A stretch of 32,000 bases of DNA, from contig JAXLZO010000001.1 of NCBI GenBank assembly GCA_046350815.1, forward strand, positions 1,200,001 to 1,232,000, given 5' to 3'. Within the stretch, counting starts at the first letter, position 1, and each line of letters starts with the position of its first letter. Origin of the DNA: Candidatus Saccharimonadota bacterium. Its GTDB lineage: Bacteria > Patescibacteriota > Gracilibacteria > BD1-5 > UBA2023. The notes below the pieces were generated by a model. That model was not told the DNA's origin and made no database searches. It saw only the letters and a list, made by a program, of their open reading frames with translations. Both the position numbers and the translations under genes were made by a program. Positions 6,599-28,671 of the stretch are shown one piece after another.

Positions 6599-9500
6599 TT
6601 ATATGAGTCGTCTTATTGCTATCTCGAGCGTACCGAGCTCATCAAATTCTTCGCTCTTTCGAAGATCTGCTTGTGAAATCTCAGATACAAATATTGCAAG
6701 TGTTTCATTCTGTATAAACATACCATGACTTTCTATTACATCATCGATTGCACCAGAGAGAGCAATCTCGATACGATCTGATACATCATAATTTGCCTCT
6801 TTTCGCATATCTTGGATGATACGGACGAGATCACGAGCATATCATTCACGAGCAAGCTCCGGAGTGATTGATGTATCGAGAGCAATAACCATATGTCCTT
6901 CACCCGCCACGTCAGATCATTGCACATATGGCTCGTACGCATTCGTGAATTCCCCAATTTCGAGTATGTGACCAGCAACAACAACCCTACCATCCTCGAG
7001 AGATTCAAATACTCCTTGTTTTCCAGATTGAATAATCGACTGAATTTCCTTACCAAATTTTGGACCGAGAAGACGCGCATCTACCTTGATAATAGAACGC
7101 GCAATCGTATCTGGCGAAGTAGTGACGATTTCATGAATATTGAGCTCGTCACGGATAATTTCACTTGCCATCTCATCAAACTCTCGAGAGATAGTAATGC
7201 GTGAAAGTGGCTGACGAACACGTATTTTTTTCTGTGCCCGCAGTGAAAGACCAAGGCGGATAACACTGCGAACATCCTCCATTTCAGCATTTAGATGAGT
7301 ATTGACATGATGCCTCGAAAATTCTGGCCACATCGAGAGATGTACACTCTCTGATCATGTAAGACCACAATAGAGAGATTCACTGATAAATGGACAGATC
7401 GGAGCAAGAAGCTGAGTCACGCTTACAAGTGTTCGATGGAGCGTTTCATACGCTGAGAGCTTGTCGCTGTCATTTCCTGATTTCCAGAATCTCTTACGAG
7501 AGCGTCGAACATAGAAATTCGTGATATCATCAATGAGTCGTACGATTGATGTAGTTGCTCGAGGAAGATGGTATTCATCAAGAGCAGAAGTCACCTCTGC
7601 AATCGCGACTTGAAGACGAGACGACATCCAGATATCGAGTGGATTGACGAGTGGATATGGTGGTAATTCTAAAACTTCAGCATTCACGAGACGAAGCGCA
7701 TGCTCATGAGTCGTTGATGATCGAGCAAAACGTGATACACCCACAGCGCGACCTGTACCACCATGTGCAACCATCAAGATACGTTCATTCGGATATTTTT
7801 GCTCCAACATGTCAATATATGTATTTACACGCTGGAGAAATTCAGCCTCTGTCTCAGCTCCAAACGCAAGTGCTTTTTCAAAATAATTCGCATGGGTTAC
7901 GCTTGGATCAAGCGCTTGCATCTCTGTGAGAGTAAGAGAAGAGAACTTTCATGCACTTCGCTCTTGAAGTTCTTCATGAATTTCAAGAGAAAGATGTTCC
8001 AATCCAAGTTCCCGACGTACGATTTCAGCAGTCTCCTGAGTTCGAATTGAGGGAGTGACGATAATACGATCGAATGTTTTTCCTTGTAACTTGAGTCGTT
8101 TTGCTGTCTCGTATGCCTGTTGTTTTCCAAGTTCAGTAATATGAACATCGGCACCACTATCACTCACACGTCATGTCGCATTTGCTTCACTCTCAGCATG
8201 TCGCATCAGAGTAATAGATCATTTTCTCGGTGACCAACCATCAATATTCGCATAGGTCGTGAAGAAGCTGTATGTATTCCAAATGGGGAGAAGTACACTT
8301 TTAACAACTTCTTCAACCCCCTGCTCACTAAAACGAAGATCTTCTGCTCGAGTCGCAGGAGAGGAAAGAATATAGAACCTCAATGCATCCGCACCATGTT
8401 TTGAGAGAAGAAGCTCTGGATCTGGATAATTCTTGAGAGACTTTGACATTTTCTTGCCATCTTCAGCGAGAATCAGTCCATTAACGAGGACATGATGAAA
8501 TGGTGGCTCATCAAAGAGTGCAGTTGAGAGTACCATGAGCGTATAGAACCAACCGCGAGTTTGATCAAGGCCTTCAGCGATAAAATCAGCTGGAAAAGTA
8601 TTCGTAAATCGATCCTTTTCGCCAAAAGGAAAATGCTTCTGTGCATATGGCATCGATCATGATTCAAACCAACAATCCAATACCTCCGTGACACGAGTAA
8701 GAGTTTTACCGGACTGTGGATCTTTGAGTCGAATCTTATCAACAAAATGTTTGTGAATATCAACCAGCTCATTGGTAAAGGTATAGTAATATTGTCCATC
8801 TTTCTGATAAATATCTCCAAAATCTTTGTTCAGTTCATACAACTCCGCAATAGATGAGATGCAAACCTGTACTTCCCCGTCATCACTTTTCCATACAGGA
8901 ATTGCCGAACCCCAATAGCGATTACGTGATATATTCCAATCACGCGCGCCCTCAAGCCATTTGCCAAATCGCCCATCACGAAGCATTTCTGGCGCCCAAT
9001 TCGTCTTTGCATTGTTTGCAAGCATCTTCTCACGAAGTGACTCAACATCCACATACCATGCAGATATTCCGCGATAGATAAGTGGGGTTTTACATCGATA
9101 ACAATGTGGATATGAGTGGTCTATCGTGCCTACATGGACAAGTATTTTTCGATCTTTGAGATCTCTAATAACGGTATCATTGTAATCAAAGACGAATTCA
9201 CCAACTCAAAAAGAAATATGCTCGACATTTCCGGTCATATTGATGTGGCCAACATATCCAAGATCTTTTTCAATACCGATAATATTATCATCCTCACCGA
9301 ATGCGGGAGCAATATGTACGACTCCCGTACCCGAATCTGTTGTCACATGATGACCGACAACAACCGAATACACATTTGATCCGAGATTCATACCACGAGG
9401 AAGCTCGTTCATCTCATTCCAGTCAGAATAGAGTGGTTCATATTTGAGTCCAACGAGACATGATCCTGGGTAGCTACGTACCAGAGTATAATCATCAGGT

Positions 9501-10309
9501 GATTTATAGTAAGTCGCTATGCGATCAGTCGCAAGCACATAGGTATCACCTGATGCTTTATCGAGAATCTCTGAGTACCCTATCCCCTCACCCACCGCAA
9601 GACCAAGATTCGCAGGGAGCGTCCACGGAGTTGTTGTCCAAGCAAGAATATATTTTGAGCTACTTCCAACAACCTTAAATTTTACTGTTACAGCCTTATC
9701 CTGTTTGTTCTCATACCCTTGATTCACTTCAAAATTCGCAAGTGGCGTCGCACATCGAGGACAATACGGTACTACGCGATCACGTTCATAAATGAGTCAC
9801 TTCTTGTAGAGTTCACCAAATACCCACCATACCGACTCCATGAAGTCTGTATCCATGGTTTTATAATCATTATCCATATCGATCCATCGACCAATACGAC
9901 GAACGACACGACGCCAATCCTCGACATAACCAAAGACATTTTTTCGGCATTCCTCGTTGAACTCATAAACACCTACACGATCTTCAATATCACGTTTTCC
10001 AGATATTCCGAGCTTCTTCTCGACTATATTCTCGATCGGAAGACCATGACAATCCCAACCAAAACGACGCTCAACATACTTGCCACGCATCGTCTGATAG
10101 CGAGGAATAGCATCTTTGATCGTACCAGCAAGGATATGACCATAGTGAGGAGTACCAGTCGCAAACGGAGGACCATCATAGAAACTAAATTCTTCTCCAC
10201 CCTTACGGATATCGAGTGATTTTTGAAATGTTTTGTGTGTATCCCAATATGCGAGGATCTCCTCTTCAAGAGCTGGGAATGATTGACGGGAATTGATTTG
10301 TGGAAACAT
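6599..10309 (-). CDS. ileS: isoleucyl-tRNA synthetase (1236 aa with UGA=Gly) carrying an internal histidine-phosphatase domain insertion
   Basis: Eight track ORFs (9797-10309, 9206-9727, 8657-9052, 8219-8653, 7949-8167, 7355-7921, 6917-7333, 6599-6808) are all in one frame and are separated only by TGA. HIGH region [16 protein letters not shown]; KMSKS ([14 protein letters not shown]); WFESGSMPYAQ; CP1/editing region; C-terminus ends in TAA at 6599-6601. Confidence 0.95.
7655..8221 (-). other. in-frame histidine phosphatase (PGAM/CobC/SixA-like, branch 1) domain inserted inside ileS
   Basis: Translation [17 protein letters not shown]...[16 protein letters not shown]...[15 protein letters not shown]...[13 protein letters not shown] shows the RHxE, xPxxRxxxTA, ERxxG and HGG signature blocks. 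It is flanked by the IleRS sequences ...[15 protein letters not shown] and [21 protein letters not shown]... Confidence 0.8.
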
Positions 10310-10315
10310 AATATG

Positions 10316-10801
10316 TTAGTTATGAAAAAATGTATGTTTTCGGATGATTTGTTCAATATTTGCAGATCCGTAAAACTTCAACGAAGAAATTCTACCAATA
10401 TCTATCCATTCTGCCTGACTCATCCAAGCCTTCTCGCTTTCTTCGAATCATTTATCTGATAGTTCTCATCAGAGAATATGTGCTGAATAAAAAATCAAAA
10501 TGGATTGAATATATCGCTTCGAAGTATTCGTTCGAAAGAATGCACTCTGACAATCAAGCAATGATTCTATTTCGATATCGTATCCAGTTTCTTCTTTTAC
10601 TTCTCGAACAAGTGCTGCCTCGATAGATTCACCAAGTTCAATCCGTCATCATGGAAGACCATAACCATCACCATGTTGTGGAATAAGGAGTATCTTTCAA
10701 TCTTGAATAATGACACCATAGACCGAAGGACAGAAACGAAGCTCAGAAGATGGAACCTCAAAGGAATTTCCATCTTTGTCATGACAAATAATATTTCTCA
10801 T
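10316..10801 (-). CDS. Nudix hydrolase (161 aa)
   Basis: ATG at 10801; TAA (complement) at 10316-10318, 6 nt before the ileS start. Nudix box GLPGGRIELGESIEAALVREVKEETG, with both PGG glycines encoded by TGA. The standard-code track shows only out-of-frame fragments here. Confidence 0.85.
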
Positions 10802-10812
10802 ATTTACATTAT

Positions 10813-11667
10813 TTATGACAGATTCTTTCTCTCCATTTCATCAAGTGTTTTCCCATTGCTCATTTTCCATTCAATCCATCCATTTGTGGGTCTTCATGTC
10901 AATATAGATGCTGCAAATGATGGAGAACTACCAATATAATCTTCAACAAATATAATATCATCCGCAACTTCCTGAAGAATTCATTTTTCGAGAAGTTCTG
11001 TACGCAATCGCTTTGCTTTTCATTTGAACGATTCTACAACTTCTTTCTTCCCCTTGCTTCAGGCAAGAATAATGAACCCATCATTTGTATACAATCATTT
11101 TCCATCAACACCTCGAGTCTTAATAGAATAAAATGAATTCTCATCAAGATTCTGATCTGGAGTAGACAAAATATCTTTTATGATCGGATATCAACTTGCA
11201 GATAATAACAGATCTATATTCTCTAAAAATTCCTCCATCGATGCTTGTTGATATTCTGGAAGATTGTTCCGAGGTGGAGTTGTATTGTTAGTTAAATTAA
11301 AGCGTTTTATTTGTTTTGCTTTTTCAATAGCTCGAGATTCCAGAAATTTAACATCTCATTTCGTGAGATCATTTCCCTTCGATGTGAACGCGATAGCCAT
11401 TTCCCAAAAATCTTTATTTGTATCATGATTGGCTATACGATCAAAAAGATTCTCCGTTTCACCGATATAAGCAACATCACTTTCATTATCATCTTTCCCA
11501 AAAAGAAAATAAACTCAAGATTGCTGCATCTCCGGACGACTTTTCACATCTTTTAATTTTGCTCGAGGTACCATAATAGCTTTACCAATCCATCAGGATA
11601 GTTCGGTAGTTTTTACGCCCGTCGGACTCCCATCAACAAGAAAAGTTGTAATCGTTTTTCAATGCAT
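10813..11667 (-). CDS. GIY-YIG nuclease-domain protein with a DUF4357-like C-terminal domain (284 aa)
   Basis: ATG at 11667; TAA (complement) at 10813-10815; about 10 in-frame TGA codons. N-terminal GVYFLFG...VAYIGETENLFDRIANH fits the GIY-YIG pattern. C-terminal FVEDYIGSSPSFAASILTGRPTNGWIEWK resembles DUF4357. Confidence 0.7.
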
Positions 11668-11673
11668 ATATAA

Positions 11674-11707
11674 AAAAGCACACAAAAAATAAAAATTGTG
11701 TGCTTTT
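11674..11707. terminator. hairpin terminator (A-tract / stem / T-tract, works on either strand)
   Basis: AAAAGCACACAA-aaaataaaaa-TTGTGTGCTTTT. On the minus strand it ends 7 nt before the GIY-YIG start codon. Confidence 0.7.
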
Positions 11708-11882
11708 GGCTCTTGTCTTCCCCAATGAGAAGATGCCCGAAGGCGGAGGGTTAAGTCCAGAGAGGTACCACCGAAAGCGGATGCTTAATGCTAGGTTGTT
11801 GACGGAGTATTTCAACTCCGGGAGGTTCTATTCGGATAAATCCTTTCTTCCTCCAGCTCGCGGATGATAGCCGCTCAGATGC
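11708..11882. ncRNA. candidate structured RNA of unknown class (GC-rich island between two terminators)
   Basis: I counted 91 G+C in 175 nt (52%), against AT-rich flanks. No credible ORF on either strand. At least five local helices: TCTTC/GAAGA, GCC-TTCG-GGC (cUUCGg-type tetraloop on the minus strand), CGGAGT/ACTCCG, GGAGG/CCTCC and GCGG/CCGC. Bounded by hairpins at 11674-11707 and 11925-11951, with a 28-nt all-purine tract at 11901-11928. Strand not resolved. Confidence 0.55.
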
Positions 11883-11924
11883 TTTTATCACTACCAGTAT
11901 AGAGAAGAAAAAGAAAAAGAAAAG

Positions 11925-11951
11925 AAAACTCGCTAAAATTAGCGAGTTTTT
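11925..11951. terminator. hairpin terminator downstream of the 314-aa ORF
   Basis: AAA-ACTCGCT-aaaatt-AGCGAGT-TTTT, 14 nt after the TAG at 11965-11967 (minus strand), followed on the minus strand by a long pyrimidine run. Confidence 0.7.
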
Positions 11952-11964
11952 CAAGATTACAAGA

Positions 11965-12909
11965 CTACGCCTCCTTCAACGTAGCTAAAAATTTTTCCAT
12001 ACGGGCATTTTGTTGTTCCGGTGTTACGCCGGAGAAAAGAGTTTTAAAAGTAGTATCTGCCTCTAAGTAAGCATCATATGCCATATTTTGCATGGCATTT
12101 ACATGAGCTACTGTCTCCTCCGTGACAGTAGCCAACCAATCCAATTGAGTCCGGCGGACTAACTGAGCTCGGTATTTATGATACTGGTTTTCCCAAAATG
12201 TACGCTCATACAAAACATTCATACGTGCCTTCTCCAGAGATTTTGCATCACTTCGAGCAGTGAAAGCGTATGCAGATTTTTGAGTTTGATTTGCCCAAAA
12301 AAACACAACGTCTAAATCAATGGTACAGTTCGTACAATACTCTTCAAATACTACCGCTTTCAGCCGAGACTGAAAAAAGTACATTACTTGTGGTTGTGAC
12401 AAACTCAACTGCATTTCACTCAGGCAAGCATTCATGAGTTGAAACAATGCTTGCTTTGGTAAGGTAAAATAACATGAACTTACCAAACGATTGCCACTTT
12501 CAATAAACATAAATGCTATCTCGGTGTAAAATCGCCCTTTTAGTCCATCCAAAAGCTTATACCGAGCCTTCATCCAATCAGAATCTAATGCCAACCCTAC
12601 GGAAGTAAGATCTAACAAACAATCTGGCGGAATATGCAATCGAACACTACGAGGAGTAATCTGCTGAATATGCCATGTTAATGGCGTATTAGCAGGATAC
12701 ATACGCAGTCTTACTTGATTTAGAATGTCCGGCAAAAGCATATATGCAGTACCTGTCAAACTCATCGTGGTTTCAACGCACGCTATATCACTAACGATTA
12801 TCGCTTCAATGCGACTTCCAGTTGGAAATAGCAATTTCAAGGGGGCTTGTTTCTGCTTATCTTTTTTCAAAAACAAGCAACTTAACAAAAAAATAATAAT
12901 CCGCTGCAT
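11965..12909 (-). CDS. hypothetical protein (314 aa), no family recognised
   Basis: Uninterrupted ORF with no in-frame TGA. I prefer ATG at 12909-12907 (MQRIIIFLLSCLF...) over the track TTG at 12930 because AGAGAGGAG sits 6 nt upstream. TAG (complement) at 11965-11967. Confidence 0.6.
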   Translation of the reverse strand: MQRIIIFLLSCLFLKKDKQKQAPLKLLFPTGSRIEAIIVSDIACVETTMSLTGTAYMLLPDILNQVRLRMYPANTPLTWHIQQITPRSVRLHIPPDCLLDLTSVGLALDSDWMKARYKLLDGLKGRFYTEIAFMFIESGNRLVSSCYFTLPKQALFQLMNACLSEMQLSLSQPQVMYFFQSRLKAVVFEEYCTNCTIDLDVVFFWANQTQKSAYAFTARSDAKSLEKARMNVLYERTFWENQYHKYRAQLVRRTQLDWLATVTEETVAHVNAMQNMAYDAYLEADTTFKTLFSGVTPEQQNARMEKFLATLKEA

Positions 12910-24874: not shown

Positions 24875-24949
24875 TGGGGATTCGCCAAGTGGTAAGGCAG
24901 CGGACTTTGACTCCGCCATGCGTAGGTTCGAATCCTACATCCCCAGCCA
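24875..24949 (+). tRNA. tRNA-Gln (anticodon UUG), CCA encoded
   Basis: Manual cloverleaf fold. Acceptor TGGGGAT/ATCCCCA with the U1-A72 pair typical of bacterial tRNA-Gln; D arm GCC-AAGTGGTAA-GGC; anticodon arm GCGGA-CTTTGAC-TCCGC; variable loop CATGC; T arm GTAGG-TTCGAAT-CCTAC; discriminator G followed by CCA. Confidence 0.9.
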
Positions 24950-25111: not shown

Positions 25112-25688
25112 CTAGTTCCAGTACGTACGAAGACGATATAAAAAATGATTCTTGAGTTGTTCACAAGTATCTCACTCTTCTTGTTTTGAGCTTCTGTATC
25201 TTTTTGTCATATTCATTGGCTGTAATTCTCATATTTCCGCATAAATATAATATAATTCATCGAGATCAGAATCACTTATCTGATGAGTATCAAAAGCATA
25301 AAGCAATCCAGACAAACGCGCAATATGATACATCATCAATGAATATTCGTCCTGCATAAAAAAGATGATCATGAAGTTCATAATCATTCCACAACTCATC
25401 ATCGAACTTTTGAATCACTTTTTTATATCACTCTACTTCTCCAATGTCAGTCAGCAAGCAAGCAATAAATAAATAATACTCAGCATCTGTATAAGGTGTG
25501 CTTGGCTCAGATTCAAAAGCCTCAAAAATTTGCATCAAATACCAAAAATATATTGGATCTTAAAAAGCAGTATTCCATTCAAGGTCAAAGCCCTCTTCCA
25601 TTGCATTTGGTGCAAAAGATGAATCAAATGCAACGAAGGATTTCTGAAGTGTGAAGTTATTGGTTGTTTTTGGTCTTTTGAAAATCAT
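25112..25688 (-). pseudogene. decayed gene downstream of hsdR (internal TAA plus a frameshift), unknown family
   Basis: ATG at 25688, 22 nt after the hsdR stop, gives 42 codons and then TAA (25562-25560). The same frame continues plausibly (DPIYFWYLMQIFEAFESEPSTPYTDAEYYLFIACLLTDIGEVEGYKKVIQKFDDELWNDYELHDHLFYAGRIF). The plausible reading then moves to another frame (MMYHIARLSGLLYAFDTHQISDSDLDELYYIYAEI...), ending at TAG 25112-25114. Confidence 0.35.
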
Positions 25689-25710
25689 ACAGTTTTAGCA
25701 AAGACAATAT

Positions 25711-28671
25711 CTATACTTTTTCTCGCAGCTTCTCAGTGACAATTTTATCAAGATATCGAATAAGATGCTCTTGAAAATCGTTATTATCGTGGTAGTTATT
25801 ATAGAATTCTAAATGATCATCTACATTTGTGACAATTTTCTCCTTTATCAGATTATTAAAAACTAATTTTCTGTTTGCTCTATCTGTCTGGAGTGAATCA
25901 ATCATTCTCTGATCTCCCACTATCTCATCAGATATATCCGAAATCATCTTCTTTACTTTGTCCTCACTGCTAAAATTCGTACCAAATCGAGTATTGAATT
26001 CAGTGACTATATGATCGAGTATATCTGTAGGTATATCAGTTCCTGAACCAATGAGTGTTGTTGGCATCGGCGTGAGTTCTCCATCTTCTGCGAGGCTGAT
26101 ACGAGCATTTGAAGTCATTTTCTCGTTTCTATACGACTCAAAATCTATAGCATCGAGGACATCCTGACTGATGATAGTTTCTTTCGATCCAAGTTCTATA
26201 ATCTTTTTATAGAGAACCTTGAGGAACTGATAGAGTTCTTCAAATTCAACGACATCATAATCAACTATCTGAGAAATAAAGCTATAGAACTTTGTATATG
26301 ATTTTGTTTTATCCTTGAAGTCATCTATCTGATCGACAGGAAGTTTTTTGATATTCTCGACTACACTATCGAGCATAGCGTGGAGCTTTTCGACTGACAC
26401 GCCTGAGAGTATATCGGTTGCGAATTTATTGACCACAAATGAGTCATATACTCCGAAAGCATCAAGAGCATCTTTGAGGTCGTGAAGCTTATTTGGATCG
26501 CTGCCACTCGCAAGAATAGTAGTCTTATAATAAGGCTCAAATGATTTCTGAATATCTTCTTCAGTGTTGTAGAAATCAAGGACAAATACACCTTCTTTGT
26601 CTTTATGGACTCGATTGAGTCGAGATAGAGTTTGCACAGCGTTGACTCATCCGAGCTTCTTATCGACATACATCGTCTGGAGAAGTGGCTGATCAAATCC
26701 TGTCTGGAATTTATTAGCACATATGAGAATCTGATAATTTCCATTTTCGAACTCATCAGGGATTTTACTGGAGCTAAAGTGATTGAGATTCGACTCGTTC
26801 CAATCAGTCCCATCGATATTCACATCTCCTGAGAAAGCCACAATTACAGCAAGAGGAAGATTTTTTTCTTTGATGAGTTGTTTGAAGGCAAAGCTATATT
26901 TTACCGCACTCTTACGACTTCCACATACGACCATTGCTTTTGCTCTTCACCCTACAAGTCCCTTGAGATATACCTGATTATAAAAGTGATCTATCATCAC
27001 TTCTGCTTTTTTCTCTATGGTTGCCGTGTGAGTCTCCACGAATCCTTTGAGCTGTCTATTTGCTCGTTTTTTATCATACTCACGATCCTTATCACCTGTG
27101 ATGATGAGTTCATAATAACTCTGGAAGGTAGTATAGTTCGAGAGCACATCCATTATAAATCCCTCTTCGATAGCCTGTTTCATCGTATAGTTATGATACG
27201 CCCGATATTTTCCATCATCTCATCGTACTCAAAATATTTCGAGAGTTTTATTCTTTGGAGTGGCAGTGAAGGCAAAATAGCTTGCATTTGGAAGCATCTT
27301 TCGAGCTTGTAGAGTCTCAAGGACTACATCCTCATCGGTATACTCTTCTACACTTTCTTCGTCTTTTTCTTCTTCGAGTGTCATTGTCTTATTCATCTTT
27401 CCGATTGTCTCACCACTGGTACTGGAGTGAGCCTCATCGATGATGATAGCAAATCTCTGACTTCAGAGTGTTCCTATCGTATCGACTATCATCGGAAATT
27501 TCTGAATAGTTGTGATGATTATTCTTTTTCCACTCTCCAATGCTGATTTGAGCTGTTTACTTCCATCTGTGATAGCTTCTACGAGTCCACGAGTATGATC
27601 AAATCCACTCACTGTATCTCTGAGCTGTTTATCGAGTACCTGACGATCAGTGATGATAAGGATACTATCAAATACATTGGTCACTCCGTCTTGCATATAG
27701 AGTCCTGCGAGTTGGTGAGCGAGCCATCCAATAGAGTTACTCTTTCCACTTCCTGCACTATGCTGTATGAGGTATTTTTGTCCTGTTCCTTTTCCTTTTG
27801 CATCCTGAAGGAGCTTATTTACTACCGTGAACTGATGATAGCGAGGAAAAATCAGCTTTCGTACTTTCTTGCCTCATTTTTCTTCGATGATGACTTGTGC
27901 GAAGTCTCGTATCAGCTTAGAGAGATTGGATTTTGTAAGGATTTCTTCCCACATATAGCTCGTACGAATACCATCTTCTAATGGAGGATTTCCTGCTCAC
28001 TCATTGTATCATTTGTTAAATGGGAGAAACCAAGTCTTGTTATCTTCGAGTCGAGTCGTCATATAGACAAGCTCTGTATCGACTGCAAAATGCACAAGGC
28101 ATCGCTCAAATCGAAAAAGCTCTTCACGACTACTTCTATCAGTTTTATACTGCTCGATAGCATCTTTTACATTTTGTCCTGTGAGGAGATTTTTGAGTTC
28201 GAGAGTTGTGATTGGGAGTCCATTGATAAGAAGTACCATATCGATGGACTTATTGTTCTGGAGGCTAAAAAATAGCTGTCTCGTCACGATAAAGGTATTG
28301 GCTTCCCAGAGAGCTATGAGATCTGGATTCAGAGTCGAATTTGGCTCAAAAAAGAAAACCATAATATGGGCATCTCTATCTTTCACTCATTTTCTCATCA
28401 CGTGTATGATTCCTTTTTCTGCGATTTCTTTCTGGAGTCTCTGGAGGAATTTTGATTGATATGATTCTCCATAGTTTACTCTGAGTTTTTCGATCTCTTT
28501 TGGCTGTGTTCGCTCTACGAAATCCCAAAATGCCACAAGGTCGATACATTCCTTACGGTCATAATGTCCTGAATGTTCTCCAGAGTAGAATTTCTGGACG
28601 AATCCATTTTGTTTGATGAGGGATTCAGTGAATAATTGCTCGAATCCTGATTCACGAGTATTGGTAGACAT
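25711..28671 (-). CDS. hsdR: type I restriction enzyme R subunit (986 aa)
   Basis: Track ORFs 28387-28671, 28009-28386, 27463-27696, 26947-27183, 26647-26934 and 25711-26637 are in one frame. In gaps 27184-27462 and 27697-28008 the only in-frame stop codons are TGA. N-terminal nuclease region (FFEPNS...IDMVLLINGLPITTLELK), helicase motif I (HSAGSGKSNS), DEAH box (IIIDEAHSS) and motif VI (QTLSRLNR). TAG at 25711-25713. Confidence 0.93.

Follow-up and report, generated by a model that had tools for sequence, protein, structure and literature searches.

What is encoded between two terminator-like hairpins just upstream of the ileS gene group of a candidate-phylum bacterium, in an interval that holds no obvious gene? 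Here, we describe this locus in a 32,000-nt stretch of DNA (the window; positions 1,200,001 to 1,232,000 of contig JAXLZO010000001.1, assembly GCA_046350815.1, Candidatus Saccharimonadota bacterium). All coordinates are those of the window, and L numbers label the homologous loci or contigs compared with it. The minus-strand RNA from about 11889 to 11672 is very probably an isoleucine-specific T-box riboswitch that forms the 5' leader of a DUF4357/GIY-YIG-Nudix-ileS operon.

The interval had been singled out in a first-pass annotation made from the letters and an open reading frame (ORF) list alone, and most of its description was recovered: positions 11708-11882 are 52% G+C (91 of 175) and the whole window is 38.6%, hairpins stand at 11925-11951 and 11674-11707, a homopurine tract (plus strand) fills 11901-11928, and the local helices GCC-UUCG-GGC and CGGAGU/ACUCCG are present. 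No credible ORF had been seen, and we find only ORFs of 55-67 aa across the region under translation table 11, together with an RNA-like pattern of conservation. The second hairpin does abut the GIY-YIG start, with six bases (11668-11673) rather than 7 nt between its last paired base and the ATG at 11667-11665. The suggestion of a minus-strand structured leader and terminator serving the ileS operon as a riboswitch or attenuator was right in kind and in strand. The statement that no T-box consensus could be matched did not hold, as the GGUGGUACC core, an Ile codon, the S-turn motifs and an F-box are all present and conserved. RNase P, signal recognition particle (SRP) RNA and 6S RNA were considered from the sequence and dropped once GGUGGUACC and the AUC of the loop had been seen.

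Architecture of the leader

Read on the minus strand, the window presents in order a K-turn with tandem GA/GA, the loop CUAUCAU, the strands GAAGAAA...AUAGAA, the sequence CCGUCA, the GGUGGUACC core, and a terminator overlapping helix A1; judged by sequence, this is the canonical order of parts for a T-box riboswitch. The K-turn and Stem I (11855-11883) consist of a C-stem (AGC/GCU), a bulge AUCU (4 nt on the 5' side, versus the usual 3), the tandem GA/GA, and a 4-bp Stem I (GCGG/CCGC). The apical loop CUAUCAU of Stem I contains the Specifier AUC (11868-11866) and after it the purine A (11865), a codon that matches the amino acid of the downstream ileS. Stem II (11821-11854) has a lower helix GGAGG/CCUCC and an upper helix GGA/UCC, and holds the S-turn strands AAGAAA and AAUAGAA. 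The Stem IIA hairpin CGGAGU-UGAAAU-ACUCCG and the UCAA directly after it occupy 11799-11820 and include CCGUCA (11805-11800), the F-box sequence (PMC7583486).

The discriminator, or antiterminator, spans 11702-11778. It is built from the A1 5' strand GCUUUCGG (11778-11771), the T-box bulge UGGUACCU (11770-11763), which holds UGGU, a 4-bp A2 helix CUCU/AGAG (11762-11759 with 11713-11710), and the A1 3' strand CCAAAAGC (11709-11702), and therefore reads GCUUUCGG-UGGUACCU-CUCU...AGAG-CCAAAAGC, with a UGGN bulge between A1 and A2. The canonical AGGGUGGNACCGCG specifies 13 positions, of which the window T-box matches 10 by hand comparison. An intrinsic terminator (11672-11707, hairpin 11674-11707) completes the leader with a 12-bp stem (AAAAGCACACAA/UUGUGUGCUUUU), a 10-nt loop and six U. 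A generic terminator scan did not list this hairpin, because its loop limit lies below 10 nt.

Upstream of the leader, the best sigma-70-like match is TTTTCT-16-TATACT, in which the -10-like box TATACT (11901-11896) is the putative leader promoter. This match ends 7 nt before position 1 of the covariance model described below. Leader transcription would start near 11890. A promoter-like site lies just upstream of the leader in most homologues, with better matches in the same place in L077 (TTGACA-16-TATTAT), L009 (TTGAAA-16-TATAGT) and L013 (TTGATT-16-TATAAT). The tract upstream of the -10-like box (11928-11901), 28 nt of pure pyrimidine when read on the minus strand and pure purine on the plus, is kept in L006/L007, and more distant relatives have no counterpart. 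It is probably the U tail of the upstream terminator together with promoter spacer.

Conservation and covariation

Homologous leaders were sought by scanning species-representative genomes with the N-terminus of IleS. The protein encoded upstream of the leader (314 aa) was found in seven public assemblies; region 11600-12000 is identical in four of these (L001, L003-L005), the L002 contig ends inside the region, and the leader of L006/L007 is 92% identical to that of the window, minus 45 nt at 11714-11758. The same leader occurs upstream of ileS in Gracilibacteria, in one Woesebacteria genome and in several otherwise-labelled genomes. In every locus with enough sequence, ileS lies downstream of the leader on the same strand, at distances of 33 to 4347 nt across strains and species (37-4347 nt in 10 of 10 metagenome loci where ileS was found). 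L006/L007 keep the leader and ileS and have different genes between them, which shows that the leader belongs with ileS and not with the adjacent gene.

A first alignment of seven leaders (MAFFT) proved too ragged in its variable regions and was replaced by one of 10 closer leaders with the structure annotated by hand; model-based alignments were used thereafter. These 10 leaders trained the covariance model R1, which was searched against 82 sources (648 kb) and against 54 loci from a metagenome pattern scan. Seven further full-length matches (E 1e-11 to 4e-8) came from the first search, as did a marginal one in L085 (E = 0.008); the roughly 60 ileS loci of Lentisphaerae, Kiritimatiellia and other phyla gave none. 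In the second, 25 of the 54 loci matched at full length; by eye, the remaining 29 are mostly chance matches of the pattern in coding DNA, and none of the 20 tested was scored as a T-box by Rfam. R1 recovered 31 full-length copies beyond its training set, in candidate-phylum (Patescibacteria-type) genomes and metagenomes. The window's own score of 151.8 bits is among the highest. A second, weak R1 match in the window (25640-25774, E = 0.5) has no T-box motif and was read as chance.

Lack of conservation or covariation in relatives had been named in the first-pass annotation as grounds for discarding the element. Across 41 sequences (the 10 training leaders and the 31 further copies), standard pairs fill 97.2% of cells, and compensatory changes occur at 27 of the 31 pairs (299 cells). 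The covariation score is 0.672, compared with 0.210 +/- 0.011 for shuffled alignments (0 of 500 shuffles reach it) and at most 0.167 when pairing partners are slid, and RNAalifold returns the identical 31 pairs. By part, 6 of 7 pairs covary in the K-turn and Stem I, the third C-stem pair being an invariant C-G; compensatory changes are found at 8 of 8 pairs of Stem II; the Stem IIA helix is supported; and 10 of 11 pairs covary in A1 and A2. The K-turn of the family is a tandem GA/(G/A)A adjoining a covarying 3-bp C-stem.

Stems vary and single strands are kept. AUC plus purine, GAAGAAA, AGUAGAA, AAAUYRAG and UGGUA(C/A)CU are near-invariant, and AUC is retained in 40 of 41 apical loops though the surrounding stem changes. 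The fold of 11668-11960 is more stable than dinucleotide shuffles on both strands (z = -5.1 minus, -3.6 plus), and frequent G-U pairs, which would be C/A on the opposite strand, indicate an RNA read on the ileS strand.

Two leaders depart from the pattern. In L089 (5398-5550, plus strand), a metagenome leader of the same architecture carries GUC (Val) in place of AUC in the apical loop, and the next gene encodes an EamA-like transporter, not ileS; this single sequence may be a short-Stem-I T-box of non-Ile specificity. The ileS leader of L085 (3315-3549, plus strand), from a genome labelled Bdellovibrionales, has the same Stem II and discriminator motifs; folded by hand, it has a longer Stem I with AUC in a bulge on its side, a layout that would be Class IV-like, and an extra hairpin after it.

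Proposed switching mechanism

The 5' arm of the terminator (AAAAGC) is the A1 3' strand, so that terminator and antiterminator exclude each other. The terminator is the more stable of the two: it is the minimum-energy fold of the full-length window leader (-34.5 kcal/mol, versus -26.1 with A1 forced) and of the full discriminator in 6 of 6 sequences folded, and it exceeds the forced antiterminator by 4-8 kcal/mol in the five sequences with A1 correctly assigned. Truncating the RNA of four relatives right after A1 gives, without constraint, a minimum-energy fold identical to the antiterminator (A1, bulge, A2). These folding energies point to the usual default-OFF design, in which uncharged tRNA would have to stabilise the antiterminator.

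The leader thus most likely switches the ileS operon on when tRNA-Ile is uncharged. In the predicted mechanism, the anticodon GAU of tRNA-Ile would pair with the Specifier AUC in the apical loop of the very short Stem I, and the Stem II S-turn, placed by the K-turn and Stem IIA/B, would clamp the codon-anticodon duplex. The 3' end of an uncharged tRNA (A73-C-C-A) would then pair with the bulge UGGU and stabilise A1 and A2, letting polymerase read into the operon. With charged tRNA or none, the more stable terminator would form with the A1 3' strand, and transcription would stop at the U run before the first start codon. Bacterial tRNA-Ile(GAU) carries A73, with which the N of UGGN, a U in the window, would pair. 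The motifs, the covarying helices, the mutual exclusion of the two folds, the linkage to ileS and the strand are observed; that the leader binds tRNA, senses its charging and is regulated at termination is our inference.

Given a T-box, regulation by transcription attenuation is likely. A Shine-Dalgarno motif is found upstream of only 1 of 24 long ORFs, and in the relatives that have one (L064, L066/L076) it lies beyond the hairpin, which speaks for attenuation and against the sequestering of a ribosome-binding site. Action on translation, alone or besides transcription, with the 11707-11674 hairpin blocking the 30S subunit unless the antiterminator forms, is unlikely. Such a mode would suit the closeness of the hairpin to the start codon in the window and L006, the published position that transcriptional T-boxes need a long Stem I (PMC7583486), and the behaviour of Actinobacterial Class III ileS T-boxes, which act in this way. 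However, a U run follows the hairpin in the window and in the 15 relatives whose folds were printed, the window offers no Shine-Dalgarno sequence to sequester and its genome has almost none, and in relatives the start codon stands 20-45 nt past the hairpin, with the Shine-Dalgarno motif outside it where present. Since the window hairpin ends 6 nt before the AUG, an added effect on translation initiation is possible alongside attenuation.

The 45-nt insertion on A2

In the window, A2 closes a strain-specific insertion of 45 nt (11758-11714, minus strand) that folds into two hairpins, GCC-UUCG-GGC and UCUUCUC-AUUG-GGGAAGA. It is absent from the related strain L006/L007, whose neighbouring 314-aa protein is identical. 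No other copy was found in the window or the compared loci, so the insertion is not a repeated mobile element there, and no similarity to the inserts of other family members was detectable. The leaders L134, L138 and L110 carry long inserts of their own in the A2 loop. Insertions on A2 are common in short-Stem-I T-boxes (PMC7583486, section 6.2), and the position atop A2 is one at which inserts are reported for known T-boxes, such as stem Sa of staphylococcal glyS and the A2 of translational T-boxes (PMC7583486; PMC9177973). Unlike these discriminator insertions, that of the window is strain-specific.

The insertion raises the question whether the window leader is a decaying or inactive relic, in which the 45-nt insert and the cargo genes have uncoupled regulation and ileS is transcribed from an internal promoter. 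The A2 that closes the insertion is only 4 bp, A1 is mismatched, the gap of 8.4 kcal/mol between terminator and forced-A1 folds is the largest tested, and 1.36 kb of cargo separates leader and ileS. A relic is nonetheless improbable: four other assemblies (L001 and L003-L005) carry the identical sequence, every helix and motif is intact, the R1 score is among the highest, A2 insertions occur in other members and in described T-boxes, cargo before ileS is the rule in the family, and no promoter-like signal above chance was found inside the operon.

Rfam searches and other RNA types

Rfam was searched with the whole window at the gathering threshold, and with 11500-12100 and L006 also at E <= 10. 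In the leader region no routine housekeeping RNA was matched, an outcome that the first-pass annotation had named as a refutation; Rfam misses the T-box variant found here. That annotation had offered, as its alternative to a riboswitch, a separate small RNA about as long as a 6S or SRP RNA. A small RNA gene of about 200 nt between the two terminators would fit the promoter-like site and the terminator of the leader, and a terminated leader would accumulate as an RNA of about 215 nt. This explanation is nevertheless very improbable, as no Rfam family matches, every conserved motif is of T-box type with an Ile codon conserved in the loop, and the element always lies upstream of ileS on the same strand. 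Attenuation by a ribosome on a leader peptide, or a leader that binds protein (L-box-like, or of ribosomal-protein type), has next to no chance: the point in its favour, low-scoring Rfam matches to Trp_leader and Phe_leader (E 0.054 to 1.1), comes from the plus strand and from the terminator hairpin of the upstream gene, no small ORF is conserved, the conserved motifs are of T-box type, and the covariation fits the T-box fold. The E <= 10 matches to the Trp and Phe leaders and to STnc230 were all rejected as weak, on the plus strand and driven by terminator hairpins.

Comparison with known T-boxes

Four classes of T-box were listed in 2023 (PMC10482949). Class III, exemplified by the ileS leader of Nocardia farcinica, has a short Stem I without a platform for binding the tRNA elbow, displays the Specifier at an apical loop, relies on Stem II, and is "mostly" translational (PMC10482949). 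Like the Class III leaders of N. farcinica and Mycobacterium tuberculosis ileS, the leader described here has a short Stem I and no elbow platform, AUC plus purine in the apical loop, a K-turn, a Stem II S-turn, the F-box CCGUCA in the Stem IIA/B region, a UGGN bulge between A1 and A2, and, by prediction, control of ileS. The distance of about 20 nt from the codon C to the S-turn adenines also corresponds to that between C18 and A38-39 of N. farcinica (PMC7583486). This likeness to Class III rests on published descriptions, not on direct alignment to an Actinobacterial sequence.

Unlike Class III, the leader ends in a terminator and U run and has no hairpin sequestering a Shine-Dalgarno sequence. 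Most of the family has an apical loop of 6-7 nt, compared with 5-6 nt in Class III, and genes are often inserted before ileS. Members occur in Gracilibacteria and other bacteria of candidate phyla; the present host has code 25 and lacks Shine-Dalgarno usage. With Class I (Bacillus subtilis tyrS; RF00230), the leader shares competition between terminator and antiterminator, with a default OFF state through the more stable terminator. It differs in having a Stem I of only 4-6 bp across the family with the Specifier in the terminal loop (L009 and L069 carry extra sequence beside Stem I), and it lacks the long Stem I with Specifier internal loop, AG bulge and distal double T-loop platform.

Several observations weigh against the identification as a T-box that acts on transcription. 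Rfam RF00230, the T-box model that covers Class I, gives no match in the window or L006 even at E <= 10, and none at the gathering threshold in nine relatives. The alignment behind the pair counts was fitted to our own model R1, and 10 of its 41 sequences trained that model. No tRNA-Ile gene, for comparison of anticodon and discriminator base, was present in the window or in the 19 loci searched. Within the discriminator, the T-box bulge is 8 nt versus the canonical 7, the foot pair of A2 is C-G in the window and U-A or C-G in most of the family rather than a conserved G-U wobble, and A1 is interrupted by a C/A mismatch in the window, with an even weaker A1 in L006. A candidate Stem IIB pairing (UUGA/UCAA, 4 bp in the window) would form a pseudoknot; the complementarity of loop and tail is no better than with shuffled tails and is not evident in many relatives, and a pseudoknot is therefore not claimed. 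The whole Stem IIA/B element is missing from L014.

The remaining points concern length and Stem III. Transcription-acting T-boxes generally need a long Stem I contacting the tRNA elbow, for kinetic reasons (PMC7583486), and the leader has no such stem. Stem III is described as integral to the discriminator (PMC7583486), a further difference from Class III: in the window, the conserved AAAUYRAGNA motif leads to A1 with no Stem III hairpin in between, and most of the family lacks it. The purine-rich flank is kept. Inserts of Stem III length are seen in three members only (L010, L012 and L093). In L012 (2360-2440), this position holds a direct repeat of about 19 nt (CGTATTACATTGTATTACA) in two copies about 19 nt apart.

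Few RNA switches are understood as well as T-boxes, and ileS is one of their classic targets, which makes the basic answer an ordinary one. The mechanism is known; the short-stem, terminator-coupled variant from a candidate-phylum bacterium is uncatalogued. Our literature search turned up no paper that mentions T-boxes in connection with the candidate phyla radiation, Patescibacteria, Gracilibacteria or Saccharibacteria; an earlier description may exist. As the variant is invisible to Rfam, and as the short-Stem-I model of the T-box database was run on Actinobacteria alone, such leaders are probably unannotated across the radiation. R1 recovers them cleanly.

A broader reading is tentative, with a little less than an even chance of being right as a whole: an uncatalogued class of T-box, widespread in Gracilibacteria and other candidate-phylum bacteria, would combine Class III decoding with a co-transcriptional terminator and dispense with Stem III, and the interval between leader and ileS would be a hotspot for gene swapping. 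If so, the class would contradict the current argument that a T-box acting on transcription must capture its tRNA quickly, with help from the elbow, and a natural family without elbow contact or Stem III would be a useful test of the kinetic argument (PMC7583486). The swapped-in Nudix, CYTH, MazG, NTPase, GNAT, MazF-like and GIY-YIG genes would also come under tRNA-Ile charging control.

The downstream operon and its variable interval

The genes downstream of the leader (6599-11667, minus strand) end in ileS. The DUF4357/GIY-YIG gene (11667-10813; Pfam DUF4357, E 6.5e-20) is overlapped by the Nudix gene (about 10897-10316; Pfam NUDIX, E 7e-17), and ileS (10309-6599; Pfam tRNA-synt_1, E 5.5e-145, and Anticodon_1) begins 6 nt past the Nudix stop. 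Between these genes no terminator-like site exceeds chance. On the other side of the leader, also on the minus strand, the 314-aa ORF (11965-12909) has no Pfam match and is followed by an intrinsic terminator at 11925-11951 (11 pairs and then a T run in the terminator scan). This terminator closes the transcription unit before the leader and lies outside the riboswitch.

In L006/L007, a GNAT acetyltransferase gene and an ORF of unknown function replace the DUF4357/GIY-YIG and Nudix genes, with the breakpoints falling on the first start codon and the start of ileS. Elsewhere the interval encodes a CYTH protein, a PemK/MazF-like toxin, NTPase_I-T with MazG, or small membrane proteins; many of these genes encode nucleotide hydrolases. 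Variable intervals were recorded at 10316-11667 of the window, 1263-2498 of L006, and in L009-L016, L041, L103, L108, L116 and L122. The interval looks like a recombination hotspot for accessory genes, and its variability suggests that these genes ride on an essential, tRNA-regulated operon.

Genetic code and other features

Under table 11 the neighbouring genes are fragmented, and reading TGA as a sense codon restores long ORFs. TGA stands at positions where a Gly would be expected, for example within the GIY-YIG motif "S*VYFLFG", and among aligned cells at TGA sites in ileS, 13 of 21 are Gly and 1 is Trp. From these Gly positions, TGA is most likely a sense codon for Gly, as in code 25, the only code under which the GIY-YIG, Nudix and ileS genes are intact. 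The nearest relatives of the IleS are from Gracilibacteria- and Peribacteria-labelled genomes.

The sole Rfam match in the window at the gathering threshold is a tRNA-Gln (24875-24946). The IleS also contains a His_Phos_1 domain (Pfam E 8e-30; aa 699-878, window 7655-8239) inserted between the catalytic and anticodon-binding domains. Such inserts, at 28-36% identity and sometimes in two copies, are present in the ileS of L009, L012, L069 and several Peribacteria-labelled genomes, and other Gracilibacteria ileS loci are without them.

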